Source of the DNA: a virus
Taxonomy: Duplodnaviria > Caudoviricetes
Direction: 5' to 3' (one strand)
Length of the DNA stretch: 56,973 nucleotides
Virus record (IMG/VR): IMGVR_UViG_3300026546_000005
Coordinates: 1-56,973 of that record
Under the pieces are notes generated by a model, which saw only the letters and a program-made list of their open reading frames with translations, ran no database searches and was not told where the DNA came from. The first letter of the stretch is position 1. Each line of letters starts with the position of its first letter. Below are positions 30,695 to 52,582 of the stretch, piece by piece. The position numbers and the translations under genes were made by a program.

Positions 30695-30702
30695 TATATT
30701 TG
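30695..30702 (+). promoter_or_regulatory. TAnnTTTG promoter of tRNA operon 1
   Basis: TATATTTGTAAAAC, also found upstream of operon 2. Confidence 0.7.
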
Positions 30703-30739
30703 TAAAACAAACATAAAAAACTTTATATATATTATTGAT

Positions 30740-30817
30740 ATGAAAAATATAATTGTCCATATGAGTTCAAGTAGTTCGCACGTAAGTGTAGGCTATGATT
30801 ATGTGTTACTCATATAA
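30740..30817 (+). CDS. Attenuator leader peptide 1 MKNIIVHMSSSSSHVSVGYDYVLLI
   Basis: Ser/His/Val codon run matches the downstream tRNAs; lies between promoter and terminator. Confidence 0.85.
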   Translation: MKNIIVHMSSSSSHVSVGYDYVLLI

Positions 30818-30837
30818 GGATAATATAAAAATAATTT

Positions 30838-30878
30838 AAAAATCCCTTGGGTAACACACTCAAGGGATTTTTTATTTT
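30838..30878 (+). terminator. Attenuator terminator (3:4) of tRNA operon 1
   Basis: AAAATCCCTTGGGT/ACTCAAGGGATTTT hairpin plus T tract directly before the first tRNA. Confidence 0.85.
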
Positions 30879-30883
30879 AATAA

Positions 30884-30978
30884 GGATGGGTTATCCGAAA
30901 GATTGCAGGGTACCGGAAACGGTCTTGAAAACCGTTACCGCCTCGTCGGCGGTGTGGGTTCGAATCCCACCTCATCCG
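30884..30978 (+). tRNA. tRNA-Ser(UGA), enlarged D loop
   Basis: GGATGGG/CTCATCC acceptor, ACGGT-CTTGAAA-ACCGT, long variable arm, TTCGAAT. Confidence 0.85.
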
Positions 30979-31910: not shown

Positions 31911-32084
31911 ATGAGTTTAATTAATAAAATTAAAAAGATTACAATACCATTAAAACATTTATTTCATAAAAAATGCTCAAAATGTTCTATTGGTTATATT
32001 ATTATTGATCACGAAGAATATATTAATAATAGTTTTGTAATAACTGTATATAAATGTAATTATTGTAATGAAAAATACATATAA
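31911..32084 (+). CDS. Small Zn-ribbon protein (not in the ORF track)
   Basis: 57 aa, CSKC...CNYC; TATATTTG at 31875-31882. Confidence 0.55.
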   Translation: MSLINKIKKITIPLKHLFHKKCSKCSIGYIIIDHEEYINNSFVITVYKCNYCNEKYI

Positions 32085-32141
32085 AATTTAAAACAATTTT
32101 AATTAACATATTATATTAATTAAATATATTTTAATATAATT

Positions 32142-32690
32142 TTGAGTTATATAAAATTATGTGTAGTAAATAAAAAACATTTAGAAGGAATAATACAATA
32201 CGCAAATAAAGCAGCTAAATATTATCAATCAAATAATAGAACATTAGATCAAAAAATAAATCATATTATAATTGGTAAAATCGCTGAATATTTAATATAT
32301 CAAACATATATTGATGAGTTCACTAAACCAAATTTTAATATAACAACTGAACCTGATCCAGGTTGGGACATGATACATATTCCAACTAAATTAAAACTAG
32401 ACGTAAAAAAACAAGTTGACATTAAACATCTAAATTTAAAAACAAACGAATTAAAAGCTGATGTATATTGTTCATTCGTTGAAATAAAATATGATTTAAA
32501 TGTAGGAACAATGGAAGGTTTATTTGAAGGATTTGTTTCAGCAAAAGATTTAATGTTTAATTTAAAAGAATCAACAAATCCTTATTATCGTAAAAAAGGA
32601 TATAAATTTTATGTATTTAAAAATAATATAAATTGGACGTTTAATATAAATGATATAAAAATAAACGAATTAAATTATGGAAATAAGTAA
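32142..32690 (+). CDS. Putative PD-(D/E)XK-fold nuclease-like protein
   Basis: GKIAE...PD.GWD...LDVK pattern. Confidence 0.45.
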   Translation: MSYIKLCVVNKKHLEGIIQYANKAAKYYQSNNRTLDQKINHIIIGKIAEYLIYQTYIDEFTKPNFNITTEPDPGWDMIHIPTKLKLDVKKQVDIKHLNLKTNELKADVYCSFVEIKYDLNVGTMEGLFEGFVSAKDLMFNLKESTNPYYRKKGYKFYVFKNNINWTFNINDIKINELNYGNK

Positions 32691-32847
32691 AGAAAAATTA
32701 CAAATATTAGTAGATTACTTTTTTAAAACCGCGATGTATTGCGATGAATTAAATATTTATGAACGTGAACAAGCAGATGACGATTTGTCAAATATGAAAG
32801 AGTGGGTAGAAGACACTTTTGGACGAGATTTGGAAGAAATTAGTTAA
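32677..32847 (+). CDS. Small acidic hypothetical protein (not in the ORF track)
   Basis: 56-aa ORF MEISKEKLQ...LEEIS overlapping the upstream stop. Confidence 0.5.
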   Translation: MEISKEKLQILVDYFFKTAMYCDELNIYEREQADDDLSNMKEWVEDTFGRDLEEIS

Positions 32848-32885
32848 TTTTTTGTAAAATATTTTTTTTATTTAAAAAAATATTT

Positions 32886-32893
32886 TATATTTG
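32886..32893 (+). promoter_or_regulatory. TAnnTTTG promoter of tRNA operon 2
   Basis: TATATTTGTAAAAC. Confidence 0.7.
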
Positions 32894-32929
32894 TAAAACA
32901 AAGAAGAAAAACTGTATATATAATTAACG

Positions 32930-33010
32930 ATGAGAACAAATTATTTACATATTAACGACATATTTAGTTTTCCCTTCCCACAGGAATGGATTGCTCTATT
33001 TGTGACTTAA
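32930..33010 (+). CDS. Attenuator leader peptide 2 MRTNYLHINDIFSFPFPQEWIALFVT
   Basis: F-S-F-P-F-P run matches downstream tRNA-Pro and tRNA-Phe. Confidence 0.8.
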   Translation: MRTNYLHINDIFSFPFPQEWIALFVT

Positions 33011-33035
33011 TATGTAAGTAAATTATAAAATTTTT

Positions 33036-33077
33036 AAAAGTCCCAAGTAGAGCTAAAATTCAACTTGGGACTTTTTT
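33036..33077 (+). terminator. Attenuator terminator (3:4) of tRNA operon 2
   Basis: AAAAGTCCCAAGT/ACTTGGGACTTTT hairpin plus T tract, 5 nt before tRNA-Pro. Confidence 0.85.
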
Positions 33078-33082
33078 ATTAT

Positions 33083-33156
33083 CGAGTAGTAGTTCAGTCA
33101 GGTAGAATACGTGCTTTGGGAGCACGGGGTCGGGGGTTCAAGTCCCTCCTACTCGA
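33083..33156 (+). tRNA. tRNA-Pro(UGG)
   Basis: CGAGTAG/CTACTCG, CGTGC-TTTGGGA-GCACG. Confidence 0.92.
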
Positions 33157-33163
33157 CATATTC

Positions 33164-33237
33164 GGAGATATAGCTCAGTAGCGTAGAGCAATGGACTGAA
33201 AATCCATGTGTCCCTGGTTCAATTCCAGGTATCTCCA
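33164..33237 (+). tRNA. tRNA-Phe(GAA)
   Basis: GGAGATA/TATCTCC, ATGGA-CTGAAAA-TCCAT. Confidence 0.92.
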
Positions 33238-33290
33238 CTAAGAATTAAAAAAAATATAAACTTTTATTTTTTTATTATAATAAAATGTAT

Positions 33291-33298
33291 TATATTTG
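33291..33298 (+). promoter_or_regulatory. TAnnTTTG promoter upstream of the Ro60/TROVE gene
   Basis: TATATTTG 50 nt before the ATG. Confidence 0.6.
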
Positions 33299-33347
33299 TA
33301 ATTCTTAAAGTTTAATAGTAATAATTTAAAAACAAAAATCTTTAAAC

Positions 33348-34931
33348 ATGGCTAAATTTAACAAAAAAACAGAAAAAGAGACTCTTATTAATGACATGGG
33401 TCAAAAAGCATTCAAACTTTCTCCAAAGGAAGAGTTAATATCAACTGTATTAACTACATTTGTTACTAATTCATTTTATGAATCAGAAAACGAAATATTG
33501 GATAGAATTCGTAAAGCCATGTCAAAATGCGATACTGAATTTGTCGCAAAGACTGCTTTATACACAAGACGTGATGCAAATATGCGTAGTTCATCACACG
33601 TGTTAGCTGGCGAATTAGCACAACGTGCAGCAGGAAAGGAATGGGCTAAAAGATTCTACAAAAATATTTGTGTTCGTCCTGATGATATGGCAGAAATTTT
33701 GGGTTATTACTTAAATGTAATTCGTGAAGGTTCTGATGGTAAAAAAATACCTAATTCAATGAAAAAAGGATTTAAAGCTAAACTTGAATCTTTAGATCCA
33801 TATTTAATTGACAAATATAAAATGAAAAGACGCGCAATTAAGTTAATTGATTTAGTTAATTTATTTCATCCAAAACCAAATGAAAAAAATGCTGAAGCAT
33901 TTAAACGTTTACGTGATGGTATGCCTTTAGATGATCTTTATACTTCTAAAATTCTTGAAAAAGAAATGTCTAAAGCCGGACAAAACACAGAAGATAAAAA
34001 AGAAGCTAAAGCAACTGCTATTCGTGAAACATTAACTGCGAATGAAAGTAAGTCACCAATTTTTAACTTAGTTAGAAATTTACGTAACATACTTGAAAGC
34101 ACACCAGATATGGTTGATGATGTAGTAACAAACATTACAAATCGTGATAAAATTTTAAAATCACGCATGTTACCATTTAGATTTGCAACTGCATATGCTG
34201 AAGTTGAAAAACTTAATGCAGTTGATAGAGACGCAAAAACTAAAGTTTTAAATGCACTTGAAACTGCAATTAATTACTCATGTGAAAATATTCCTGAGTT
34301 ATTTGGTAATACTGCTATATTAATTGACCATTCAGGTTCAATGAGAGGTAGTAACGGTAGTGGATCATCAAAAGTATCTGCATTTTCAGATGTAACAACA
34401 TCTATTATTGCTAATTTATTTGGAGTAATGCTAATGCAATCTCAAGATAATGTATACATGGGATTATTTGGTGACAGACTTGTAACAGTAAAAGACATTG
34501 ATCGTTCAAAAGGTGTTTTAAAAACACATAAAGAAGTTCATAAATTAGGTTCAACATGTGGCCTTAGTTCAGAACATGGTTTATTCGAGTTTTTTGCTGA
34601 CGTTGTTAGACATAGAGTTAGAGTTGATAATGTTATCATATTTTCAGATATGGTAATTGGTTCTAACAGCTGGTATGGTCGCGGATCAATTGGGGACATT
34701 AGAACAGGTTCTGGATCGTTTAATTCATTGTTTAAACGCTTTAAAGAACTAAATCCTTTAGCAAATATAGTATCAGTAAACTTACATGATACTAAAGGAA
34801 CAACAGTCTTTAATAAAAAACTTGGTGTTACTCAAATTTCTGGATGGTCTGAAAAGATTTTTGATGTATTGAAAAATATGTCTAAAGGTTATGAAGATAT
34901 AATTGCAGAAATTGAAGCAATTAAACTTTAA
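33348..34931 (+). CDS. Ro60/Rsr-like TROVE-domain RNA-binding protein
   Basis: G..AF.LSP..EL, FYE, ALY.R....MR, RPDD, KY, L.DL..L.HPKP, LVRNLRN, SR.LPFRF, vWA DHSGSM. Confidence 0.9.
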   Translation: MAKFNKKTEKETLINDMGQKAFKLSPKEELISTVLTTFVTNSFYESENEILDRIRKAMSKCDTEFVAKTALYTRRDANMRSSSHVLAGELAQRAAGKEWAKRFYKNICVRPDDMAEILGYYLNVIREGSDGKKIPNSMKKGFKAKLESLDPYLIDKYKMKRRAIKLIDLVNLFHPKPNEKNAEAFKRLRDGMPLDDLYTSKILEKEMSKAGQNTEDKKEAKATAIRETLTANESKSPIFNLVRNLRNILESTPDMVDDVVTNITNRDKILKSRMLPFRFATAYAEVEKLNAVDRDAKTKVLNALETAINYSCENIPELFGNTAILIDHSGSMRGSNGSGSSKVSAFSDVTTSIIANLFGVMLMQSQDNVYMGLFGDRLVTVKDIDRSKGVLKTHKEVHKLGSTCGLSSEHGLFEFFADVVRHRVRVDNVIIFSDMVIGSNSWYGRGSIGDIRTGSGSFNSLFKRFKELNPLANIVSVNLHDTKGTTVFNKKLGVTQISGWSEKIFDVLKNMSKGYEDIIAEIEAIKL

Positions 34932-34933
34932 AA

Positions 34934-34963
34934 AAGGAGAGGAATTTTATATTCCTCTCTCTT
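34934..34963 (+). terminator. Hairpin / probable terminator after TROVE
   Basis: GGAGAGGAAT/ATTCCTCTCT; weak U tract. Confidence 0.55.
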
Positions 34964-35005
34964 AAAAAAATAAAACAAATATTTTTATTTTAATGTAAAA
35001 TATAT

Positions 35006-35013
35006 TATATTTG
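35006..35013 (+). promoter_or_regulatory. TAnnTTTG promoter of the Y-RNA-like cluster
   Basis: TATATTTG 7 nt before the first stem. Confidence 0.7.
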
Positions 35014-35020
35014 TAAAAAC

Positions 35021-35103
35021 AAACTAAAGATAGTAAGTTTAAAAGTTACATCGTTTATAGGGGAAATAACAATTCACTTTTAACATTAAATCTTCTTTAG
35101 TTT
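35021..35103 (+). ncRNA. Y-RNA-like element 1 (no tRNA domain)
   Basis: AAACTAAAGA/TCTTTAGTTT outer stem, TAGT, TTAAAAGT/ACTTTTAA inner stem, TACATCG motif; downstream of Ro60. Confidence 0.65.
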
Positions 35104-35131
35104 AAAAAACGATCTTTAATATAAATGACAT

Positions 35132-35272
35132 AAATAAGATAGTGAGTAATTTTATTACATCGAGAACAATTAGCTTAGTTGGTTGAGCACTGCCCTTTCA
35201 CGGTAGAGGTCGTCGGTTCGATCCCGACATTATTCTATAAATACATATAAAATTACAGCATTCTTCTTATTT
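35132..35272 (+). ncRNA. Y-RNA-like element 2 enclosing a complete tRNA-Glu(UUC)-like cloverleaf (35164-35236)
   Basis: AAATAAGA/TCTTATTT, GTAATTTTAT/ATAAAATTAC, TACATCG; CTGCC-CTTTCAC-GGTAG; GTCGG-TTCGATC-CCGAC. Confidence 0.7.
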
Positions 35273-35281
35273 TTTCAACTT

Positions 35282-35419
35282 GGCGAGGACAGACAACACA
35301 TTAATATTAAACGTTCTCTGTTCATAGTAGTAATAATATTAATTACATCGATTAGCGATATTGGTTTCGCACCTTGGTTTTGGTCCAAGTCTATGCGGGT
35401 TCGATTCCCGCCCTCGCCG
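35282..35419 (+). ncRNA. Element 3: tRNA-Gln(UUG)-like RNA with the Y domain inserted between the acceptor 5' strand and the D arm
   Basis: GGCGAGG(35282-88)/CCTCGCC(35412-18); insert with ATTAATATTA/TAATATTAAT, TAGT, TACATCG; CTTGG-TTTTGGT-CCAAG. Confidence 0.7.
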
Positions 35420-35426
35420 CGAATTT

Positions 35427-35570
35427 TAAAGTTGGATAGTGATAAAAAACGTTACTTCGTAGCTCAGATGGGTAGAGCAATTGACTGCAGATCAATGGGT
35501 CGTTGGTTCAACTCCAACCGAAAACGTTAATTCGTTTTCTTCACGTTTTTTAAACGTACTTCCAACTTTA
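35427..35570 (+). ncRNA. Y-RNA-like element 4 with tRNA-Cys(GCA)-like D, anticodon and T arms and a loop-closed acceptor-like hairpin
   Basis: TAAAGTTGGA/TCCAACTTTA, TAAAAAACGT/ACGTTTTTTA, TACTTCG; ATTGA-CTGCAGA-TCAAT; GAAAACG/CGTTTTC. Confidence 0.7.
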
Positions 35571-35588
35571 TTTTTTAAACCTGTTATA

Positions 35589-36338
35589 ATGAAAGTTAAA
35601 AAACAAACAGAGCAAACATTTAAATTTGTAAAATCTATAAAATTTGGTAGAACTGACTTACCAACACTTGTTTTTATATTTGGTTATCCGTTTAAAATAA
35701 AGGAACATTTTAATTATGACGGAAATTTTTATTATATTGATAGTCATTATAATAAAGCATTAGTTTATCCGTCTCCTTTTTTAAATATAAAAGATTTATC
35801 ACGTGTAATTGCTAAAGAATTATTATCTAAATTAAAAACTTCAGATGTAGTTTTAGTTGGTTACTCTCTTGGTGCAGTATATTCATTAGAAATATCTAAA
35901 ATATTAGAAGAAAATAATATTAATGTAAAATTACAATTATTAATTGATCCAATTGATACAATATATAATTTTAATACTAAATTATACAATAAATTAAGAT
36001 ATTCTTTTTGTTTTACTGCTTTATTTAGTCGATATTTAATATTTAGTTTTTTAGTAAAATTGCAAAACATATTTAATTTTAAAATTATTACTAGATCAAT
36101 TTATATTAATTCAGTGTATAGAATACATTTATTACGCTATAATTTTTCTTATAATAATATAAATACAATTTTAATTAAAAACTCTACTAATTGTAATAAA
36201 ACTAAATATAGTTGGATTGATATTTTTAAAAAAGATAATATTGATTTAAAAGTGTTTAATGCTAAAAAACATTCTGATTTTTTCTTTAATGAAAGTATAT
36301 TAAAAAAATGGATTAATATACTAAAATTAAATATATAA
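35589..36338 (+). CDS. Stand-alone thioesterase (alpha/beta hydrolase), paralog of the NRPS TE domain; start revised to ATG 35589
   Basis: GYSLG, LIDP, KKHSDFF; NYDG.FYYIDSHYN shared with the 55357 protein. Confidence 0.75.
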   Translation: MKVKKQTEQTFKFVKSIKFGRTDLPTLVFIFGYPFKIKEHFNYDGNFYYIDSHYNKALVYPSPFLNIKDLSRVIAKELLSKLKTSDVVLVGYSLGAVYSLEISKILEENNINVKLQLLIDPIDTIYNFNTKLYNKLRYSFCFTALFSRYLIFSFLVKLQNIFNFKIITRSIYINSVYRIHLLRYNFSYNNINTILIKNSTNCNKTKYSWIDIFKKDNIDLKVFNAKKHSDFFFNESILKKWINILKLNI

Positions 36339-36359
36339 CTGAAAATAAAATTATTATAT

Positions 36360-36665
36360 ATGGCAACATTAGGAAGTAATTTAGATAAGGTTAAAATAAT
36401 TAAACAAAATAATTCAATTATAATAATTGAAACATTTAGTAATCAACAATACTCTGGATTAGGTAGAGGTGAATATGCGTCATTAAGTGCTGAAGAAAGT
36501 ATTACTGTACATAATATTCAAAATATTGTAGTATCTATTAAAAATGAAATAGTTGTTATAAAATCTGCAATGGGAGTTATGCATTCATTTAACATAAATA
36601 TAGTTGAAACTGAAGGATTTAAATTTAAAACTGAATTAGAATTTATTCAAAATTTAATAAAATAA
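36360..36665 (+). CDS. Hypothetical protein
   Basis: ORF in operon. Confidence 0.6.
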   Translation: MATLGSNLDKVKIIKQNNSIIIIETFSNQQYSGLGRGEYASLSAEESITVHNIQNIVVSIKNEIVVIKSAMGVMHSFNINIVETEGFKFKTELEFIQNLIK

Positions 36666-36671
36666 AATATT

Positions 36672-36977
36672 ATGAAATCACAAAATAAAACGAGTTCAGA
36701 ATATTTAAATGATTTGTTAAATACATTAACAAATTCAACTGTTATTAGTGATAAATTTATAAATTATATTTTACAAATAGCAAATAAATCTATTGCTGAT
36801 AATTTTAAATCTGGAAAAAATAATGATGACGAAATATTTGATCATTATAAAAAATTAGTAAAAGAATTTCATTATATAACAATATTTAGTACACATTTTC
36901 AAAATTTAGTATTAGGTATTATACACGATTGTATAACTACAGCATATGAAGAAGGACAAAAAGAAAGGGCTAATTAA
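36672..36977 (+). CDS. Hypothetical protein
   Basis: ORF in operon. Confidence 0.6.
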   Translation: MKSQNKTSSEYLNDLLNTLTNSTVISDKFINYILQIANKSIADNFKSGKNNDDEIFDHYKKLVKEFHYITIFSTHFQNLVLGIIHDCITTAYEEGQKERAN

Positions 36978-36997
36978 AATAATTAGCCCTTTCTTTT
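36958..36997. terminator. Bidirectional intrinsic terminator
   Basis: AAAAGAAAGGGCTAATTA/TAATTAGCCCTTTCTTTT between convergent genes. Confidence 0.8.
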
Positions 36998-37011
36998 ATT
37001 GTTTATTAAAA

Positions 37012-37461
37012 TTATTGAATTTCAATTTTTTTAACTTCTTTAGCTTCTTCAATTTCTTTAACATTCTTTTTCAATGTTACAGTTAAAATACCTTTATCAA
37101 AAGATGCATTTATATCATCTTCTTGAACATCTTCAGGTAATGTAAAGCTTCTTTCAAACATATTATATTTAAATTCTCTACGGATGTAATTTTTATCTTC
37201 TACTTTCTTTTCACTTTCATTTTTAGATTTAATAGTTAACATATTATCCTTAATAAATACATCCACATCTTCTTTTCCTGCACCTGGCAATGAAACTTCT
37301 AATTGATAGTTATCATCATTTTCAATAACGTTTACTTTTCCAAAATCATTGCCAGATAACGATTGCAATGGACGATAAAATAAATCATCCATAAAATTAT
37401 TACCAAAAAAGTCATCTAATAGACTTGGTAAATATCCTGGAGTTCTTTTCATTAACATCAT
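37012..37461 (-). CDS. Small heat-shock protein Hsp20/alpha-crystallin
   Basis: VNV.E, LPG..KEDV, YIRREF.Y..FERSFTLPE, ASFDKGILTV, IEI tail. Confidence 0.92.
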   Translation of the reverse strand: MMLMKRTPGYLPSLLDDFFGNNFMDDLFYRPLQSLSGNDFGKVNVIENDDNYQLEVSLPGAGKEDVDVFIKDNMLTIKSKNESEKKVEDKNYIRREFKYNMFERSFTLPEDVQEDDINASFDKGILTVTLKKNVKEIEEAKEVKKIEIQ

Positions 37462-37490
37462 AGCTTTATTATTTTTTTATTAAATATAGT

Positions 37491-37531
37491 ACAAAAACTA
37501 TGCCAAATTAAAAATTATGACAATTTGTCAT
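37491..37531 (-). promoter_or_regulatory. Sigma54-like -24/-12 element plus inverted repeat upstream of hsp20
   Basis: Minus strand TGGCATAGTTTTTGT (consensus TGGCACGN4TTGC); ATGACAA-T-TTGTCAT at 37517-37531. Confidence 0.45.
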
Positions 37532-38148
37532 TTATTTATGACATTTTTGATATAAAAATTAAGTATTCGTAAACGTTCTTGATCTTTAACTGCAATTAGC
37601 CATTGATATGCTAAATTTTTTTCTATAAAATCAGATTTTTCTTCCATTTTTTCAATTTGAGTTTCAACTTGTTCAATAACATTTTCATCAATTGTAACTT
37701 CTATATCTAATTCAATTGCAGTTTTATATAATGTTATTATATCATGTGAACTATATGCATCTGATGCTTCTGAATACAATTCAAGTTGTTTTTGTGTTGG
37801 ATTTTTTAATTTATCTGGATGAATTTGTTTTGATATTTCATGAAAAATTTTTTGTTCAAATTCACTAGAAGGTGTTTTTTCTGTTATATTTTGCGTATTA
37901 TTATTTTCATCATTAAATCCATTTGTACCATTTTGATTTTTAAATTTAACATCAATTTTCTGTGGATTTATTATATTATTAAATTTTTTTAATAAATCAG
38001 GTTTATCTTTTAATAATTTATTTACTTCACTTAAAAACTTTGGTTCTGCTTCATGCACAATTTCAGTTTTATATTCTATTTCATTAGAATAATAATTATA
38101 TTTAGATAATAAAGTTTTTAATTTTAATTGTAATAATGCATTATTCAT
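37528..38148 (-). CDS. J-domain-like protein
   Basis: IFHEISKQIHPDKL...LYSEA..AY; adjacent to hsp20. Confidence 0.65.
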   Translation of the reverse strand: MNNALLQLKLKTLLSKYNYYSNEIEYKTEIVHEAEPKFLSEVNKLLKDKPDLLKKFNNIINPQKIDVKFKNQNGTNGFNDENNNTQNITEKTPSSEFEQKIFHEISKQIHPDKLKNPTQKQLELYSEASDAYSSHDIITLYKTAIELDIEVTIDENVIEQVETQIEKMEEKSDFIEKNLAYQWLIAVKDQERLRILNFYIKNVINK

Positions 38149-38199
38149 ATTTAATTATAATATTAAATGTAAAATTGTTTAAGTAATATATATTTTAAA

Positions 38200-38433
38200 A
38201 TGATACACATCATGAAAGTAAAAATTATAAATATTCCAAAATATTCATATGAATATTTAGTTACTAATTTTAAACATAAAGTTGAAGATGACATTACTCG
38301 TGATGAGTATCGATTAGGCATTAAAAAAAGATTAATATTAATTAAAAAAAACGATATTGTTGAACGTGCAATATTTTTTAATGGTCAAAAATCTATTGAT
38401 TTGCCTTTAAATTGGTACTCAATTATCGATTAA
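38200..38433 (+). CDS. Hypothetical protein
   Basis: Short ORF. Confidence 0.45.
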   Translation: MIHIMKVKIINIPKYSYEYLVTNFKHKVEDDITRDEYRLGIKKRLILIKKNDIVERAIFFNGQKSIDLPLNWYSIID

Positions 38434-38975
38434 TAAATATCATTAATATTATTTAATGGTATATTATTTTTATAAGTTGACGCAAGTTTTAATAACTTAT
38501 TTCCAATTTGATACGCAGATGTAACTATTTCTCCGTCAATCCATATATCACCATTTTTATCTATTGTTAATAAATTTTCATTATTTATTTGTTCATTTAA
38601 ACATGGTTCATCTACTATATTGCCATATTCATCTTTAACTGGATTTGAATAATATTGATGTGCTATATATTCAAAAAAATTAACAGGTATACTTACAGAA
38701 ATATTTTTAGTTATAAATGACGAAATGTAATTTAAATATTGTTTAATATCATATAAATCATTACTAAATTCATCTATTTTATTTAATCCAGTATGAATAT
38801 TTAAATACTCTTCAACAACATTTAATCTTGAATTTGTATTAACTTCTAAGGTATAAAATGAATTTTGTAAATCATTTATATCATTTTTTACATTTATAAT
38901 ATTCAATTCAGTTTTTAACAACTCAATTTCAGTTTTAAGTTCATTTAATTTATTTTCAATTTCAGTTATATCCAT
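38430..38975 (-). CDS. Hypothetical coiled-coil protein
   Basis: N-terminal heptad pattern. Confidence 0.55.
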   Translation of the reverse strand: MDITEIENKLNELKTEIELLKTELNIINVKNDINDLQNSFYTLEVNTNSRLNVVEEYLNIHTGLNKIDEFSNDLYDIKQYLNYISSFITKNISVSIPVNFFEYIAHQYYSNPVKDEYGNIVDEPCLNEQINNENLLTIDKNGDIWIDGEIVTSAYQIGNKLLKLASTYKNNIPLNNINDIY

Positions 38976-39073
38976 CTAAATATTAGTGTTTAATTATTAT
39001 ATTTAATATATTTTAATAGTTTAAGTAAGTATTATTAAAAAAATATATATACAATAAATATAATATTTTAATT

Positions 39074-40519
39074 GTGGCTGATAATACAAGACGCACATTA
39101 CATTTTGAAGATGGTGGAAGACCATACAATAATACTGATTTTAATGCAATACAAAATTCTATAAATGATGCACAAACTTTTTTAAATAGCATTATTAATA
39201 AAAATGGAGTATTAAAAAATAATACAACATTATATAATAAATCAGTATGGATTTTAGATGGATTTAAAAATAATAGTGGTGATTACACTTTAGGAGAATC
39301 TGGTTTAATATGGTTAGATGGAAAAATAAGATATGTCGAATATCGAGATTTTTCTAATATAAATGAAGATGCATATATTGAAGCAATAAATTCTGAAGAA
39401 AGTAGATTATATAAAGATGGTAATGTTAAAAAAGTTTTTAATGTTTATTCTGCAAAATGGTTATTATTATCAGAACTAGATACTAATAATGTGCATGCAA
39501 AATTTTCTTCTACATCTGATATAGCAAATTCAGTTTTAGATGAAAGTGCATATCTTAAATCAATAATTGCTAGACAATCTAGTACAAGTACATCTGTAAT
39601 ACCTTTAACTGGTAATATTACATTTGAAGGGAGAAATGGATTTAAAGTATATAGAGATGATAATAATGTTAAAAAATTAGTTTTAGAACAAGCAGATCCG
39701 GAAGAATTTGTACATCCACCAATTCAAAATTATTGGCAACCATTTACAGTAACAGTAAGTGCAGGTAAAATTATATCAAGTATTAGTGTAACACCTGATG
39801 ATAGATGTGCACCTAATTGTGGTCAAGGACACATTGAATCATTTAGTGTATCAACAGACAATTTTAAATTATCTAATTCTAATAGAGCTGTAACAACTGG
39901 TTCAGATGGATCACTAACAACTAGTGCTGTAACTGCAACTGAATTAGGATATTTAGATGGAGTAACTAGTTCAATACAAGATCAACTTGACGATAAACTA
40001 AATTTAACTGGTGGTAAAATTAATGGTGATTTAGTTGTCACTGGAGATTTATTTGTTGATGGTACTATTAAATCTAACGATGATATTATTGCGTTTGCTG
40101 GTGAATCAATTCCATCATTAATAAATAATAATACACAAACAGCACAAGTTCAAACAAACTGGGAAAATTTAACTGGATTTACATCTGAATACGAATCAGA
40201 TCAATACAATGTTGCTCAATATCGAATTGATTCAAGTGGTAATGTTCATTTAAAAGGAATAGTTAAACGAAAAGTTGGTAAAATAATATCCGATGAATTA
40301 TTTATAGTATTTCCTAATGAATTAAATCCATCGACAAATATTGATAGTGTTTTTAATGTTGCAAGCGTAGAATTAAAAGAATTCACATATATTAATATAA
40401 AATTTGATGGTACTAATTTTACAGGTGCTATTAAAATAATGAATAAAAATACAAATGAAGAATCTGATTATACCACAGCAATTTATTTAGATGGTATAAT
40501 ATATAATAAAATAATATAA
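39074..40519 (+). CDS. Tail-fibre-related protein
   Basis: N-terminus (L.F..GGRPYNN.DF..IQ; G..WL.GK.RYV) homologous to the 7866-12014 fibre; ELGYLDGVTSSIQ.QL fibre motif. Confidence 0.7.
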   Translation: MADNTRRTLHFEDGGRPYNNTDFNAIQNSINDAQTFLNSIINKNGVLKNNTTLYNKSVWILDGFKNNSGDYTLGESGLIWLDGKIRYVEYRDFSNINEDAYIEAINSEESRLYKDGNVKKVFNVYSAKWLLLSELDTNNVHAKFSSTSDIANSVLDESAYLKSIIARQSSTSTSVIPLTGNITFEGRNGFKVYRDDNNVKKLVLEQADPEEFVHPPIQNYWQPFTVTVSAGKIISSISVTPDDRCAPNCGQGHIESFSVSTDNFKLSNSNRAVTTGSDGSLTTSAVTATELGYLDGVTSSIQDQLDDKLNLTGGKINGDLVVTGDLFVDGTIKSNDDIIAFAGESIPSLINNNTQTAQVQTNWENLTGFTSEYESDQYNVAQYRIDSSGNVHLKGIVKRKVGKIISDELFIVFPNELNPSTNIDSVFNVASVELKEFTYINIKFDGTNFTGAIKIMNKNTNEESDYTTAIYLDGIIYNKII

Positions 40520-40531
40520 AATAAGATTGCA

Positions 40532-41023
40532 ATGAAACATTTATTAAACATACATAATATATTAGAAAATAATTCAGATGATATTTTAAACAAAATTCTT
40601 GATAAAATATCTGAAAATGATATTGATTCATTAACAGATAAAGAAAAATGGTTATTAAAAAATTACGGTAAAACAGAAAGAGATTATGATATTGAGCATG
40701 GATTAATAAATCCTGAAGATGAAGAAAAAAATAATTATCATAATGATTCAGATTCTAATGTTATAGAAGAAATTGATTGGCAATTTAGAAATGATTTATT
40801 AAATTTATGCGAGTACAATCAAATTTACGATTTAAAAAAAATGCCACAAAATTATTGGATATTATCTTTTGAATCAGATTCAAATGTTGCACAAGATGTA
40901 AGACAATTATTATTTAAATATCATAATAAAATAAGAGTTCAGCAAACTAAAAAAGATTACATAAATTTAATTGAAATAATTATTCCAGAAGAAGATGGTG
41001 AATGGTTAAATAGTAGAATTTAA
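40532..41023 (+). CDS. Hypothetical protein (DUF6576-like ILDKIS...SLT..EK motif)
   Basis: LNKILDKISENDIDSLTDKEK. Confidence 0.55.
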   Translation: MKHLLNIHNILENNSDDILNKILDKISENDIDSLTDKEKWLLKNYGKTERDYDIEHGLINPEDEEKNNYHNDSDSNVIEEIDWQFRNDLLNLCEYNQIYDLKKMPQNYWILSFESDSNVAQDVRQLLFKYHNKIRVQQTKKDYINLIEIIIPEEDGEWLNSRI

Positions 41024-41341
41024 TGTATCTATTTTTTCGCACCTAGACAACGCTTCGTTTGTTGTATTACGAATTGTATTTTCCCAATTTACATTAACTG
41101 CATCTTTATTAACACACATATTTTGTCCCTTATATTTAAATTTAATAAGAGTTGTTTTTACTTTTTCACCTGGATCATACATGTAAAAGAATCCATTAAA
41201 CATTTCACCTGATTTAATTATAAGAATAACTTCTTCAATCTCTGCTCCTTTATCTTGTAAATATTGCATATATTGTTTAGTCATATATTTAATATTTTCA
41301 GAGCCATTCCAGCCTTCATATGTAATTGGATATTCATTCAT
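41006..41341 (-). CDS. Hypothetical protein (start revised to MNEYPI)
   Basis: The longer ORF-track start runs through a terminator and tRNA-Thr. Confidence 0.55.
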   Translation of the reverse strand: MNEYPITYEGWNGSENIKYMTKQYMQYLQDKGAEIEEVILIIKSGEMFNGFFYMYDPGEKVKTTLIKFKYKGQNMCVNKDAVNVNWENTIRNTTNEALSRCEKIDTLNSTI

Positions 41342-41361
41342 ATAGTATATATTTAAAAAAT

Positions 41362-41393
41362 AAAGCACTTTAGTAAATACTAAAGTGCTTTTT
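41362..41393 (-). terminator. Terminator closing tRNA operon 3
   Basis: AAAGCACTTTAGTA/TACTAAAGTGCTTT. Confidence 0.75.
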
Positions 41394-41394
41394 G

Positions 41395-41467
41395 AGCCTC
41401 CAGGCAGACTCAAACTGCCGACCTACGGGTTACAAAGCCGTTGCTCTATCAACTGAGCTATGGAGGC
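41395..41467 (-). tRNA. tRNA-Thr(UGU)
   Basis: GCCTCCA/TGGAGGC, loop TTTGTAA. Confidence 0.9.
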
Positions 41468-41472
41468 ATTTG

Positions 41473-41546
41473 TGGGCCTTGTAAGGCTTGAACTTACGAC
41501 CCCCTGATTATGAGTCAGGTGCTCTAACCAACTGAGCTAAAGGCCC
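41473..41546 (-). tRNA. tRNA-Ile2(CAU, lysidine type)
   Basis: GGGCCTT/AAGGCCC, CCTGA-CTCATAA-TCAGG; the leader of this operon is rich in AUA and has no internal AUG. Confidence 0.85.
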
Positions 41547-41553
41547 TTAATTG

Positions 41554-41626
41554 TGGCCCGTGTGGGATTTAAACCCACGACCTATTCATTAAAAGTGAAT
41601 GGCTCTATCAACTGAGCTAACGGACC
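41554..41626 (-). tRNA. tRNA-Lys(UUU)
   Basis: GGTCCGT/ACGGGCC, ATTCA-CTTTTAA-TGAAT. Confidence 0.9.
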
Positions 41627-41668
41627 AATTATATAACATCTTTAAATAAATATTTCCAAAGATCGTTG

Positions 41669-41742
41669 TGGAGAAGGCGGGGCTCAAACCCGCGGCCTCC
41701 GCAGTGCAAGTGCGGTGCTCTAGTCAACTGAGCTACGTCCCC
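41669..41742 (-). tRNA. tRNA-Ala(UGC)
   Basis: G3:U70, CCGCA-CTTGCAC-TGCGG. Confidence 0.9.
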
Positions 41743-41748
41743 ATGTAT

Positions 41749-41781
41749 AAAAAAACCGGGTAACTTTTTGTTACCCGGTTT
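41749..41781 (-). terminator. Attenuator terminator (3:4) of tRNA operon 3
   Basis: Minus strand AAACCGGGTAAC-AAAAA-GTTACCCGGTTTTTTT, 6 nt before tRNA-Ala. Confidence 0.88.
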
Positions 41782-41804
41782 CATTGGTATTAACCACTAA
41801 AAAT

Positions 41805-41879
41805 TTAAATGAGAACACGAGTAACATGACGATATTTTATCGCCTTTTTTATTGTTGTTATTATCGTTATTGTTCTCAT
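41805..41879 (-). CDS. Attenuator leader peptide 3 MRTITIITTIKKAIKYRHVTRVLI
   Basis: 13 consecutive Thr/Ile(AUA)/Lys/Ala codons match the four downstream tRNAs. Confidence 0.9.
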   Translation of the reverse strand: MRTITIITTIKKAIKYRHVTRVLI

Positions 41880-41925
41880 ATCTTTATTATATATAGAGTT
41901 TTTTGTTTCTGTTTTATTATATATG

Positions 41926-41933
41926 CAAATATA
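41926..41933 (-). promoter_or_regulatory. TAnnTTTG promoter of tRNA operon 3
   Basis: TATATTTG on the minus strand about 46 nt before the leader ATG. Confidence 0.7.
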
Positions 41934-41957
41934 AATAAAAGTTTTAAATAAAAAAAA

Positions 41958-42650
41958 TTATTTATAAAAAAAATCATAATTTTTTTCTCCAAGCATTTGC
42001 CTATAGTATGTTATTTCTTTTTTATTTGTATTAATATTATTAAATAATATTTGTTTGTATTCGTCACGCATTTCAATATACAACACATTTGAATTAGCAA
42101 CTACACCAATAATATCATCAACAGATTCTTTTAATGATATATTATTATTTAATTTATTGTTAATTTTTTCAATAAATGTGTCATTAGTTAAATTTAGTTG
42201 TTTATCAATAAAATGTATATAAGCATCACCAGTTAATATATGTTGATAATATTCATATATGTTTGTTATTGTATTATATTCCCACGGAAAAATATTATAT
42301 GTGCATATTTTATTATTTACTCTAATTTCTTGTTCAACTTTTAAATTATATTTATTAATTAATTGAATAAATTCTTCTTTTAATGGTTCAATTGCATTTA
42401 ATATAAACCCATCTTTATTATAAATAAAAACACAATATTTAAATACATCACTTAAAATATGAAGTTTACGCGTTAATTTTGAAATTTCAACAGCAATATT
42501 AGAGTTATTCCAACTATATAATTGCTCATTTTCATAAAACAATCGTCCAGTTGGAAATGCGTATAAAATAGTTAAAGGATCAATTGGAATGTTAGAAGGT
42601 AATACCTTATTAACAATAATCCATGATCCTTTATCTGGTATTATATTCAT
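41958..42650 (-). CDS. Hypothetical protein
   Basis: 230-aa ORF, TATATTTG at 42672-42679 (minus). Confidence 0.6.
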   Translation of the reverse strand: MNIIPDKGSWIIVNKVLPSNIPIDPLTILYAFPTGRLFYENEQLYSWNNSNIAVEISKLTRKLHILSDVFKYCVFIYNKDGFILNAIEPLKEEFIQLINKYNLKVEQEIRVNNKICTYNIFPWEYNTITNIYEYYQHILTGDAYIHFIDKQLNLTNDTFIEKINNKLNNNISLKESVDDIIGVVANSNVLYIEMRDEYKQILFNNINTNKKEITYYRQMLGEKNYDFFYK

Positions 42651-51180: not shown

Positions 51181-51209
51181 AAAAAGCTTGTTAATTAACA
51201 AGCTTTTTT
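51181..51209. terminator. Bidirectional terminator
   Basis: AAAAAGCTTGTT/AACAAGCTTTTT between convergent genes. Confidence 0.7.
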
Positions 51210-52582
51210 ATTTCATTATTATTAATCATATATTCAAATAAAATTTCCTTTTTATTTTCTAATTCGCCATTAATTACTTTATCATAAATAATCTTTTTTA
51301 TATCTCCTACAACTTTAGAAGGTTTTAAATTATAATAATTCATTATATCATCACCAGTTAATTCAATTCTAAAATTACGCAAATCATCTTCTTCACGAAC
51401 TTTTTGAATATGATCATATAATTTATTAAGATCTTTTATCATTTTATCTTTTTTGTCTTGATATTTAGTTGTCATATCACAACTAGCAAATAATAATAAA
51501 TCTTCTAAATTATCACCTAATTCGACGATTAAACGTCTAACAGCTGAATCTGTTACACCTTCTTTTACGAGTTCTTTAGGTCTTCCATGATACTTTATTA
51601 ACAAATAAAGTTTATTAGTAAATTGACGACCAAATTTAATTCTATTAGTAACATGTTTTAATAAATACGCTCCAACTTTTTCATGGTTGTGAAAAGTCCA
51701 ACCTCGTTGTTTGTCAAATCTTTTTGTTTTATATTTACCAATGTCATGTAATAAAGCAGTCCACAGTAAAACTAAATCATCAGTTTTTTCTCTAGTTTGA
51801 TCTAGTACTTGTAAACTGTGATAATAGTTATTCTTATGTTTTTGTTCTGCAATTTCTTCAACTTCATTAAGTTTAACAACTTCAGGTAATAAATAATCTA
51901 ATATTCCAACCTTTCTCATTAATTCTATTGCAATTGATGGTTTATCTAATAACATTATTTTATTAAGTTCATTAAGTAATCTTGAATTACTAACAACACT
52001 TAATAAATTTATATTATTAATTATACTATTTAATGTATTTTTTTCAATATTTAAATTGTATTTTGCTGCTAATCTAATTGCTCGAATTATACGAATTGAA
52101 TCATCAATAAATGTATCATCTGCTTTTATAGGTGTTTTTAAAATTTTATTATTAATATCATTTAAACCATTAAAATAATCTATAACATTTCCAGTTTTAA
52201 TATCTAATGCTAAAGTGTTAATAGTAAAATCTCTACGTTTAAGATCATCTATTAATTGTATATCGTTTTTAGATTTTTTATATGATTTAACTTTAGCCTT
52301 TACTATTTCAATATTAATATCATTATATTGAAGACTTACTGTTCCATATCGTTTAAAAATATGAACATATTTTTTATCTATGTTCAATTTTTCACAAATA
52401 TTGAACATCAATTTTTCTTCAGAATAATTTAAAACAACAATGTCAATATCTTTAGATTTTTTACCTAATATTAAATCTCTAACATATCCACCAACAATAT
52501 ATGCATCAATATTATTTTGATTACATATACTTTTTATTTCATTTAGTGCGTTACTGTTATTAATAATATTTAAATAATTCAT
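51191..52582 (-). CDS. cca: tRNA nucleotidyltransferase (class II CCA-type) with HD domain
   Basis: VGGYVRD...DID, RRDFTIN, DD.IR.IRA.R, LLHDIGK. Confidence 0.85.
   Translation of the reverse strand: MNYLNIINNSNALNEIKSICNQNNIDAYIVGGYVRDLILGKKSKDIDIVVLNYSEEKLMFNICEKLNIDKKYVHIFKRYGTVSLQYNDINIEIVKAKVKSYKKSKNDIQLIDDLKRRDFTINTLALDIKTGNVIDYFNGLNDINNKILKTPIKADDTFIDDSIRIIRAIRLAAKYNLNIEKNTLNSIINNINLLSVVSNSRLLNELNKIMLLDKPSIAIELMRKVGILDYLLPEVVKLNEVEEIAEQKHKNNYYHSLQVLDQTREKTDDLVLLWTALLHDIGKYKTKRFDKQRGWTFHNHEKVGAYLLKHVTNRIKFGRQFTNKLYLLIKYHGRPKELVKEGVTDSAVRRLIVELGDNLEDLLLFASCDMTTKYQDKKDKMIKDLNKLYDHIQKVREEDDLRNFRIELTGDDIMNYYNLKPSKVVGDIKKIIYDKVINGELENKKEILFEYMINNNEIKKLVN

Follow-up and report, generated by a model that had tools for sequence, protein, structure and literature searches.

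What decides when a large phage makes its own tRNAs? To our knowledge, the control of phage tRNA genes is largely unknown, and discussion is usually limited to codon usage or to escape from host nucleases. The question is raised by a stretch of viral DNA of 56,973 nt (IMG/VR virus record IMGVR_UViG_3300026546_000005; linear according to IMG/VR, CheckV completeness ~26%, G+C ~25%), called the window below, in which an element that we designate attenuator 3 precedes four tRNA genes on the minus strand. Judging from its sequence, attenuator 3 is probably a ribosome-mediated (leader-peptide) transcription attenuator that gates the tRNA operon as a feedback on tRNA supply; this large phage would then make the four tRNAs, probably, only when their codons are decoded slowly.

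The leader ORF and the codons of its regulatory run

Along the minus strand, a promoter box is followed by a motif in the 5' untranslated region (UTR), a leader open reading frame (ORF), a spacer, a hairpin with seven Ts (T7), 6 nt, the four tRNA genes and a second terminator. The features are as follows (MFE, minimum free energy).

41933-41926, minus strand: promoter -7 box TATATTTG, matching TAnnTTTG
41902-41888, minus strand: 5'-UTR motif AAAACTCTATATATA, its 3' end 8 nt before the ATG
41886-41856, minus strand: region 1, UAAAGAU-AUGAGAAC...ACGA...UAACA, from the MFE fold; pairs with region 2 when the ribosome is absent
41879-41805, minus strand: leader ORF of 24 codons plus stop, MRTITIITTIKKAIKYRHVTRVLI; ATG at 41879, stop codon at 41807-41805
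41873-41835, minus strand: regulatory run, codons 3-15 (Thr ACR, Ile AUA, Lys AAR, Ala GCG)
41844-41828, minus strand: inner hairpin GGCGAUA-AAA-UAUCGUC, codons 13-17, in the MFE fold and most ribosome-mask folds
41826-41809, minus strand: region 2, UGUUACUCGUGUUCUCAU, partner of region 1 or region 3
41804-41782, minus strand: spacer of 23 nt between the stop codon and the hairpin
41784-41769, minus strand: region 3, AUGAAACCGGGUAACA, terminator 5' arm; pairs with region 2 in the 16-pair antiterminator
41781-41749, minus strand: intrinsic terminator; stem 41781-41753 of 12 pairs, 6 of them G-C, loop AAAAA, T7 at 41755-41749
41742-41668, minus strand: tRNA-Ala(UGC), by ARAGORN and Rfam, beginning 6 nt past the T-run
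41626-41553, minus strand: tRNA-Lys(UUU), by ARAGORN and Rfam
41546-41472, minus strand: tRNA with a CAU anticodon, by ARAGORN and Rfam
41467-41394, minus strand: tRNA-Thr(UGU), by ARAGORN and Rfam
41391-41362, minus strand: terminator closing the tRNA operon, 13 pairs followed by ATTTTTT

The sequence and its translation confirmed that leader codons 3-15 are those quoted in a preliminary description of this DNA, namely four Thr (ACA/ACG), five Ile (ATA), three Lys (AAA/AAG) and one Ala (GCG). As it had also stated, all 13 lie within the decoding set of the downstream Ala(UGC), Lys(UUU), CAU and Thr(UGU) tRNAs. For the chance test this set was defined as {ACA ACG ATA AAA AAG GCA GCG}; it represents 19.4% of the 14,096 codons in 40 long ORFs of the window (p^13 = 5.5e-10) and 15.6% of all window trinucleotides (p^13 = 3e-11), the single codon shares being 8.0% for AAA, 4.1% for ATA, 3.6% for ACA and 2.5% for GCA. 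Across all six frames of the window, the 13-codon run is the longest of its set and the runner-up has 8 codons. Given this distance and the p^13 of 5.5e-10, the codon run of attenuator 3 is real and not a product of chance.

The gene upstream of the promoter box lies at 41958-42650, and the 6-nt gap between the T-run and tRNA-Ala leaves no space for another promoter. In the accessible parts of PMC7366714 and PMC9723704, the -7 consensus of the Bacteroidetes sigma-A factor is given as TAnnTTTG. The TATATTTG boxes found in the intergenic regions of the window (29 observed against 18.5 ± 4.9 expected) agree with this consensus, an identical box precedes attenuators 1 and 2 of the window, at 30695 and 32886, and the box at 41933-41926 is predicted to be a Bacteroidetes-type promoter. 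The pattern AAAACTNTATATATA matches the window exactly only at the three attenuators (30717-30731 and 32908-32922 on the plus strand, 41888-41902 on the minus strand), 7-8 nt upstream of each leader ATG, all remaining matches having 1-2 mismatches; a similar element, TTTAATATATA, stands upstream of leaders in related phages. This motif could enhance initiation by ribosomes that work without a Shine-Dalgarno sequence, or it could act as a second, phage-specific promoter giving a near-leaderless mRNA.

The preliminary description had used the AUA-only Ile codons to support an Ile2 identity of the CAU tRNA. The observation stands: all five are ATA, against an ATA share of 43% among the Ile codons of the window (p = 0.015). 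We infer the identity itself, that is, a reader of AUA after lysidine modification by TilS, because the Ile codons of the run are all ATA, the run contains no ATG codon and the CAU tRNA is the sole candidate AUA decoder within the operon. The leaders of related phages described below behave alike, with 12 ATA to 4 ATY codons before Ile(UAU) operons and 1 to 7 before Ile(GAU) operons (Fisher p = 0.008; locus L028, where both tRNAs are present, is excluded from the table), and ATG codons are found in the run of locus L005, where Met(CAU) follows. Initiator tRNAs have a mismatched acceptor end and a run of three G-C pairs in the anticodon stem. Read by eye, the CAU tRNA has a fully paired acceptor end and an anticodon stem without three consecutive G-C pairs, which we take to mean that it is an elongator. 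Compared with the Ile(UAU), Ile(GAU) and Met(CAU) tRNAs of the relatives, it is closest to CAU tRNAs (80% and 75%) whose own isotype is undecided. No TilS-type domain was found in the window, which, at ~26% of the genome, makes this absence carry no weight.

Pairing of the leader RNA

The full leader RNA folds at -42.8 kcal/mol (z = -7.0; 0 of 200 shuffles fold as well), and its MFE fold consists of a long interrupted 1:2 helix and the terminator. In the helix, UAAAGAU-AUGAGAAC, ACGA and UAACA are paired with UGUUA, UCGU, GUUCUCAU and AUUUUUA. Helices had been proposed before between ATGAGAACA (41879-41871) and TGTTCTCAT (41817-41809) for 1:2, and between GTTACTCG (41825-41818) and CGGGTAAC (41777-41770) for 2:3; both exist at these coordinates, and it is their extents that need revision. 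The 9 bp given for 1:2 are too short, as the helix comprises AUGAGAAC/GUUCUCAU, ACGA/UCGU and UAACA/UGUUA and also sequesters GUUACUCG. Because the 1:2 pairing is longer, this segment, formerly assigned to 2:3, is held by region 1 when no ribosome is present. The 8 pairs given for 2:3 are likewise too few: folding yields an antiterminator of 16 pairs, in which UGUUACUCG, GUU and UCAU pair with AUGA, AAC and CGGGUAACA (41826-41809 with 41784-41769). The 3:4 terminator was confirmed as a 12-pair stem (41781-41753) with T7 at 41755-41749; the terminator scan scored the hairpin on the plus strand, and the T7 of the minus strand was read directly from the sequence. Regions 1 and 3 are alike since both are complementary to region 2, the hallmark of a three-way switch.

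A ribosome was represented in the folds by a 30-nt mask centred on a chosen codon, the RNA being either full length or cut before the 3' arm of the terminator, the cut form representing the point at which the polymerase commits itself. The MFE fold of the cut RNA is the 16-pair antiterminator, unmasked as well as with the mask at codons 4, 6, 8, 10 or 12. At codon 15 the mask extends onto region 2 and the antiterminator is lost; with the mask at the stop codon, 2 nt downstream of the end of region 2, the terminator alone remains. The inner hairpin, which may be a polymerase pause hairpin, is missing from the folds in which the mask lies over it (stalls at codons 10, 12 and 15). In a fold of the 3' part of the leader with the 5' arm of the terminator, all 9 arm bases have an upstream partner (z = -4.35, 0 of 200 shuffles).

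The switch would operate as follows. Transcription would begin at the TAnnTTTG promoter, and a ribosome would load on the 24-codon leader while the polymerase advances. If codons 3 to ~13 were decoded fast, the ribosome at the stop codon would cover region 2 and the 3:4 terminator would stop transcription 6 nt before tRNA-Ala; if no ribosome had loaded, regions 1 and 2 would pair and the terminator would form again. Scarcity of any matching aminoacyl-tRNA would stall the ribosome on region 1, leaving region 2 free for the 16-pair antiterminator before region 4 is made, and the polymerase would continue into Ala-Lys-CAU-Thr. As the tRNA products would relieve the stall, the circuit would therefore feed back negatively and directly on the supply of precisely those decoders, all four of which would read A-ending codons, favoured by a phage of 25% G+C. 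Translation of the leader, the kinetic competition between helices and the physiological trigger are what we infer here; attenuation of this kind is plausible in the presumed host phylum, as suggested by the strong clues for leader-peptide attenuation before amino-acid operons of Flavobacterium psychrophilum given in the part of PMC9723704 available to us. The same design would gate the two other tRNA operons of the window and, in related huge phages of Bacteroidetes, many tRNA blocks.

Leaders before other tRNA operons

The window's two further canonical tRNA operons share the layout of attenuator 3. Attenuator 1 (30740-30880, plus strand) has the leader MKNIIVHMSSSSSHVSVGYDYVLLI (MKNIIVHMSSSSSHVSV...) before Ser(UGA)-like, Ser(GCU), Val(UAC) and His(GUG) tRNAs, and attenuator 2 (32930-33080, plus strand) has the leader MRTNYLHINDIFSFPFPQEWIALFVT (...IFSFPFP...) before Pro(UGG) and Phe(GAA); when cut before the 3' arm of its terminator, the RNA of attenuator 2 folds into a long antiterminator. 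The long-arm tRNA at 30884-30977 (plus strand) is not called by ARAGORN and scores 47.7 bits with the Rfam tRNA-Sec model (threshold 47). Its anticodon, UGA by eye, suggests a Ser tRNA reading UCA/UCG, which would fit the TCA and TCG codons of leader 1.

The relatives of this phage were placed by its DNA polymerase. The closest are four uncultured phage records of 634-735 kb (48-51% identity); further off are a 462-kb record, Chryseobacterium phage MA9V and the Lak phages of Prevotella. No tRNA genes were found in Chryseobacterium phage MA9V-1, the sole cultured relative by this protein (29.7% identity), which is therefore no model for attenuator 3. In the accessible text of PMC7162821, genomes >634 kb have predicted Bacteroidetes hosts and are grouped with Lak in the Mahaphage clade; the LR records of our relatives are presumably those genomes.

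The survey covered the window and the tRNA regions of its four nearest huge-phage relatives, in all 106 tRNA groups split at gaps >60 nt. Terminator hairpins ≤130 nt upstream of a tRNA occur in 24 cases (window and loci L005-L031), and in 23 of the 24 a short ORF has its stop codon 22-36 nt before the stem. Such leaders include MKTIAMIIRMRIIRPKMLG before Arg(UCU)-Ile(GAU)-Met, MTTTQQIQQQQINQTD before three Gln tRNAs, MRTILIIKKKKR... before four Lys tRNAs and ...FWHFHF... before His-Phe. For the match between leader and operon, we used 24 attenuators (attenuator 3, the window's other two and 21 more from the four related huge phages; L031, which has a terminator and no ORF at the proper distance, was left out), scored the whole ORF minus the start codon, and re-paired leaders and operons at random 10,000 times. 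The fraction of leader codons decoded by the own operon has a mean of 0.333, compared with 0.120 ± 0.020 after re-pairing (maximum 0.206; 0 of 10,000), and each of eight variants of the test likewise gave 0 of 10,000. For attenuator 1, the longest ORF, from 30689, served as the leader; it is probably too long, which only lowers the observed match. The terminator coordinates of attenuator 2 were wrong in this test and in the test of alternative pairing, and its row in the latter is invalid. This comparison supports the claim that the codons of a leader are drawn from those that its operon decodes.

The claim that the match extends to the level of codons holds in general too. Among the Arg, Ser, Leu and Ile codons of the leaders, 56 of 86 are in the box served by the anticodons of the operon, against 0.493 ± 0.049 when permuted (2 of 5,000 permutations as high), in addition to the ATA and ATY counts given above. 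Agreement reaches 15/16 for Arg, with CGN codons before Arg(ACG) operons and AGA before Arg(UCU) operons, and 22/27 for Ile; it is 15/38 for Ser, a value depressed because ARAGORN misses tRNAs (the Ser(UGA)-like one at 30884-30977 and a Trp-like one in L010). The pairing of the leader 3' part with the terminator 5' arm beats shuffles at p ≤ 0.05 in 21 of the 23 valid rows of the 24 attenuators. Further leaders of this kind are found in LR756500, which has three (for example MKTLSTYPLGQAQTLGTPPITG before Ala-Leu-Pro-Tyr-Gln-Gly-Thr-Gly), and in Lak-B5 (...CMHPVCGMIHMFPCGGGR... before His-Pro-Arg-Arg-Gly-Gly-Cys-Met); these four match their own operons at 0.43-0.71, compared with means of 0.09-0.12 for unrelated operons. 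The layout thus precedes tRNA blocks in six related huge phages, one of them a Lak phage, and in at least seven genomes with the window. Among the leaders of the relatives there is no obvious counterpart to the three of the window, which nevertheless follow the codon-match rule.

Whatever of the leader-peptide attenuator class can be read from sequence is present at the locus: a predicted promoter upstream and none between the terminator and the tRNAs, an ORF with a codon run, mutually exclusive 1:2, 2:3 and 3:4 pairings, a stop codon at which a terminating ribosome would cover region 2, an intrinsic terminator and a design that recurs in related phages with leader content following the tRNA genes.

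Several other observations concern these leaders and tRNAs. Attenuators are nested in L005 and L007 (LR756504) and in L026 and L029 (LR745206): the opening leader names the amino acids served by a long array (MTTIIRNMNNNINRTRTT... before Thr, Asn, Thr, Arg, Arg, Ile, Met) and inner attenuators would gate sub-blocks. Almost all leaders (window and L005-L040) open with ATG-A(A/G/C)A-AC(A/T) or ATG-AAA-AAT, that is MKT, MRT, MTT or MKN, whichever operon they precede; this common start may serve as a context for initiation, or it may belong to region 1. Loci L005, L007 and L024 (LR756504, LR756502) contain tRNA-like genes to which ARAGORN gives a two-letter anticodon, '(tt)', and which have in common the anticodon region ...CTTTTCAG...; they may be Glu-like tRNAs with an altered anticodon loop. 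CUA-anticodon tRNAs ('Pyl' in ARAGORN; the amber-reading suppressor type) are found twice in tandem in L017 (LR756501) and once in L038 (LR756500), which hints at TAG recoding in those relatives.

The window itself codes for ribonucleotide reductase, a tail fibre, structural proteins, a radical-SAM enzyme, a Ro60-like RNA-binding protein, the DNA polymerase, a glucosyltransferase and a CCA-adding enzyme. The Ro60-like gene (phrog_850; region 33348-35560, plus strand) has its own promoter box downstream of the gene, followed by tRNA-Glu(UUC), an unusual long tRNA-like element at ~35270-35410 and a GCA-anticodon tRNA at 35456-35522 (called by Rfam only), and no leader ORF stands before any of these three. 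The tRNA nucleotidyltransferase (CCA-adding enzyme; 51191-52582, minus strand; phrog_2244 match, E = 2e-65) is another tRNA-maintenance function of the phage.

Readings of the locus and their meaning

Several points weigh against a codon-specific attenuator at this locus. At equilibrium, the full-length RNA favours the terminator even with the mask of a stalled ribosome, so that, as in classical attenuators, the antiterminator must prevail kinetically. With the ribosome stalled at codons 14-15, region 2 would be covered, and the final codons of the run may therefore give no signal; leader codon 2 (AGA) and codons 16-24 are outside the operon's decoding set. The CAU tRNA could be an elongator Met tRNA, in which case the five AUA codons, the largest class of the run, would report on a host tRNA. 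Many attenuators are homologous between phages, and the counts consequently overstate independence. For window positions 32001-42000, two DNA runs, one of which may be the source sample, and no RNA run are listed. In scans of viral contigs and of a metagenome, no orthologue of the attenuator 3 leader was found, which leaves its helices without covariation support. The viral-contig scans with single proteins (the upstream ORF; Ro60) gave no confirmed close relative, the one metagenome scan with the upstream ORF and an exact search for a 28-nt tRNA-Ala pattern gave no match, blastn of the leader region against cultured phages returned just 3 matches at E = 9, and blastn of the whole operon matched the tRNA genes alone. 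A pattern search with the UTR motif returned 7 loci, all without tRNAs, which were discarded as chance matches within long ORFs. Finally, shortage of a tRNA and shortage of an amino acid are not distinguishable by a stall.

This last point leads to an unlikely but plausible account, according to which the switch is the same and its signal is general translational stress or amino-acid starvation, the operon being turned on whenever ribosomes slow down, as in host shut-off or starvation. A stalled ribosome is indeed blind to whether a tRNA is missing or uncharged, as established for trp- and his-type attenuators, and the nearest printed case, the trn operon of Anabaena, is induced by translational stress according to the accessible text of PMC8421152. 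Each leader, however, samples the codons of its own operon alone, down to the codon box, a precision for which a stress sensor has no need, and extra tRNA would not relieve amino-acid starvation. A switch independent of translation, in which the leader RNA binds a tRNA or a protein (a T-box-like or protein-dependent antiterminator) and the ORF is incidental, is improbable. It would suit targets that are tRNAs, in a phage that also carries Ro60 and a CCA-adding enzyme, and T-box RNAs do sense tRNAs; against it, no T-box or other Rfam family reaches its gathering score at the locus (L20_leader, 21.8 against 58.7 bits; Leu_leader on the opposite strand, 12.2 against 50 bits), and T-box matches are absent from the window at the gathering threshold and from 41700-41960 at E ≤ 10. 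Moreover, the signal is an in-frame codon run whose stop is 22-36 nt from the terminator in 23 cases, and the leaders have no common RNA motif beyond the start region.

It is very improbable that a chance short ORF stands before an ordinary terminator, one that ends the upstream gene 41958-42650 or constantly damps tRNA transcription. ATA and AAA are common at 25% G+C, the decoding set accounting for 15.6% of all trinucleotides, and the hairpin is symmetric, having been scored on the plus strand. Yet p is ~5e-10 per start for the 13-codon run, which no other run in the six frames equals, the promoter box stands between the upstream gene and the leader, the match of leader and operon is specific over 24 cases (0 of 10,000), and the alternative pairing is far better than in shuffles; we rejected this account on the codon-run statistics and the permutation of leaders and operons. 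We give hardly any credence to the idea that the short ORF encodes a functional small peptide whose composition is unrelated to regulation: the leaders do share N-terminal MKT/MRT/MTT residues, but past residue three the peptides differ wholly between operons, in step with the tRNA content.

We place attenuator 3, as the sequence supports, in the known leader-peptide class; it stands apart there in that its targets are tRNA genes, that a phage carries it and that the host phylum is another. In enterobacteria, thrL senses Thr/Ile and ilvL Ile/Val/Leu, and trpL, hisL, pheL and leuL are further leader-peptide attenuators. Attenuator 3 resembles thrL and ilvL in its promoter, its short ORF with regulatory codons for several amino acids, its exclusive 1:2, 2:3 and 3:4 pairings and its terminator before the genes. 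Unlike them, it has tRNA genes and not biosynthetic enzymes as targets, so that the loop would be closed by the gene product itself. It also differs from the enterobacterial leaders in matching anticodons and codon boxes, in being borne by a phage and in having a Bacteroidetes-type promoter. The pheM leader attenuates the E. coli pheST operon (Phe-tRNA synthetase), and so places a component of the translation apparatus under the control of the decoding of its cognate codons, as attenuator 3 would do; its target is in contrast a synthetase, it senses a single amino acid, and it is chromosomal. In the T-box, a specifier codon mediates direct binding of uncharged tRNA, and translation is not needed. 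What the T-box shares with attenuator 3 is a choice between terminator and antiterminator that depends on how a specific tRNA stands, whereas the signal of attenuator 3 is an in-frame ORF without a match to the T-box model.

Among printed cases, the closest that we found is the trn operon of Anabaena sp. PCC 7120, whose accessory tRNAs are, in the text available to us, silent and induced when translation is impaired (PMC8421152, PMC10272220). Accessory tRNA genes are regulated in both, but in Anabaena control is exerted at the promoter by repeats and TrcR, with no codon-matched ORF, and the words 'attenuat' and 'leader' have 0 occurrences in the accessible text of the two papers. The candidates of F. 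psychrophilum, as far as the same portion of PMC9723704 describes them, concern amino-acid biosynthesis operons of a bacterium and not phage tRNAs, and 'attenuat', 'leader' and 'terminator' are absent from the accessible text of the huge-phage paper PMC7162821. In the literature searched, outside which lay old scans (for example of the 1980s phage T5 tRNA region), subscription papers and supplements, we found no account of leader-peptide attenuation of tRNA genes.

A leader attenuator before tRNA genes would be the most direct feedback on a tRNA pool that can be imagined, since the ribosome tests the product itself. If attenuator 3 works in this way, it would bring a new class of targets under a textbook mechanism and would explain how genomes with dozens of tRNA genes avoid constant tRNA production. 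The leaders would allow the codons truly read by phage tRNAs to be predicted from sequence only; they would also provide compact, portable, codon-specific sensors of decoding speed for Bacteroidetes. Recurrence in at least seven huge-phage genomes (the window and six records) would make the design testable in many versions. Tentatively, the huge phages of Bacteroidetes (the Mahaphage clade, including Lak) may possess a distributed tRNA homeostat, with a codon-matched test ORF for each tRNA block, through which host decoding would be gauged codon by codon and only what is missing would be replaced. The host pool could be ill-suited by nature to an AT-rich genome, or could be depleted by anticodon nucleases and host shut-off. 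On this view the leaders would be natural decoding tables that can assign a function to ambiguous or odd phage tRNAs, such as the CAU tRNA as Ile2 for AUA.

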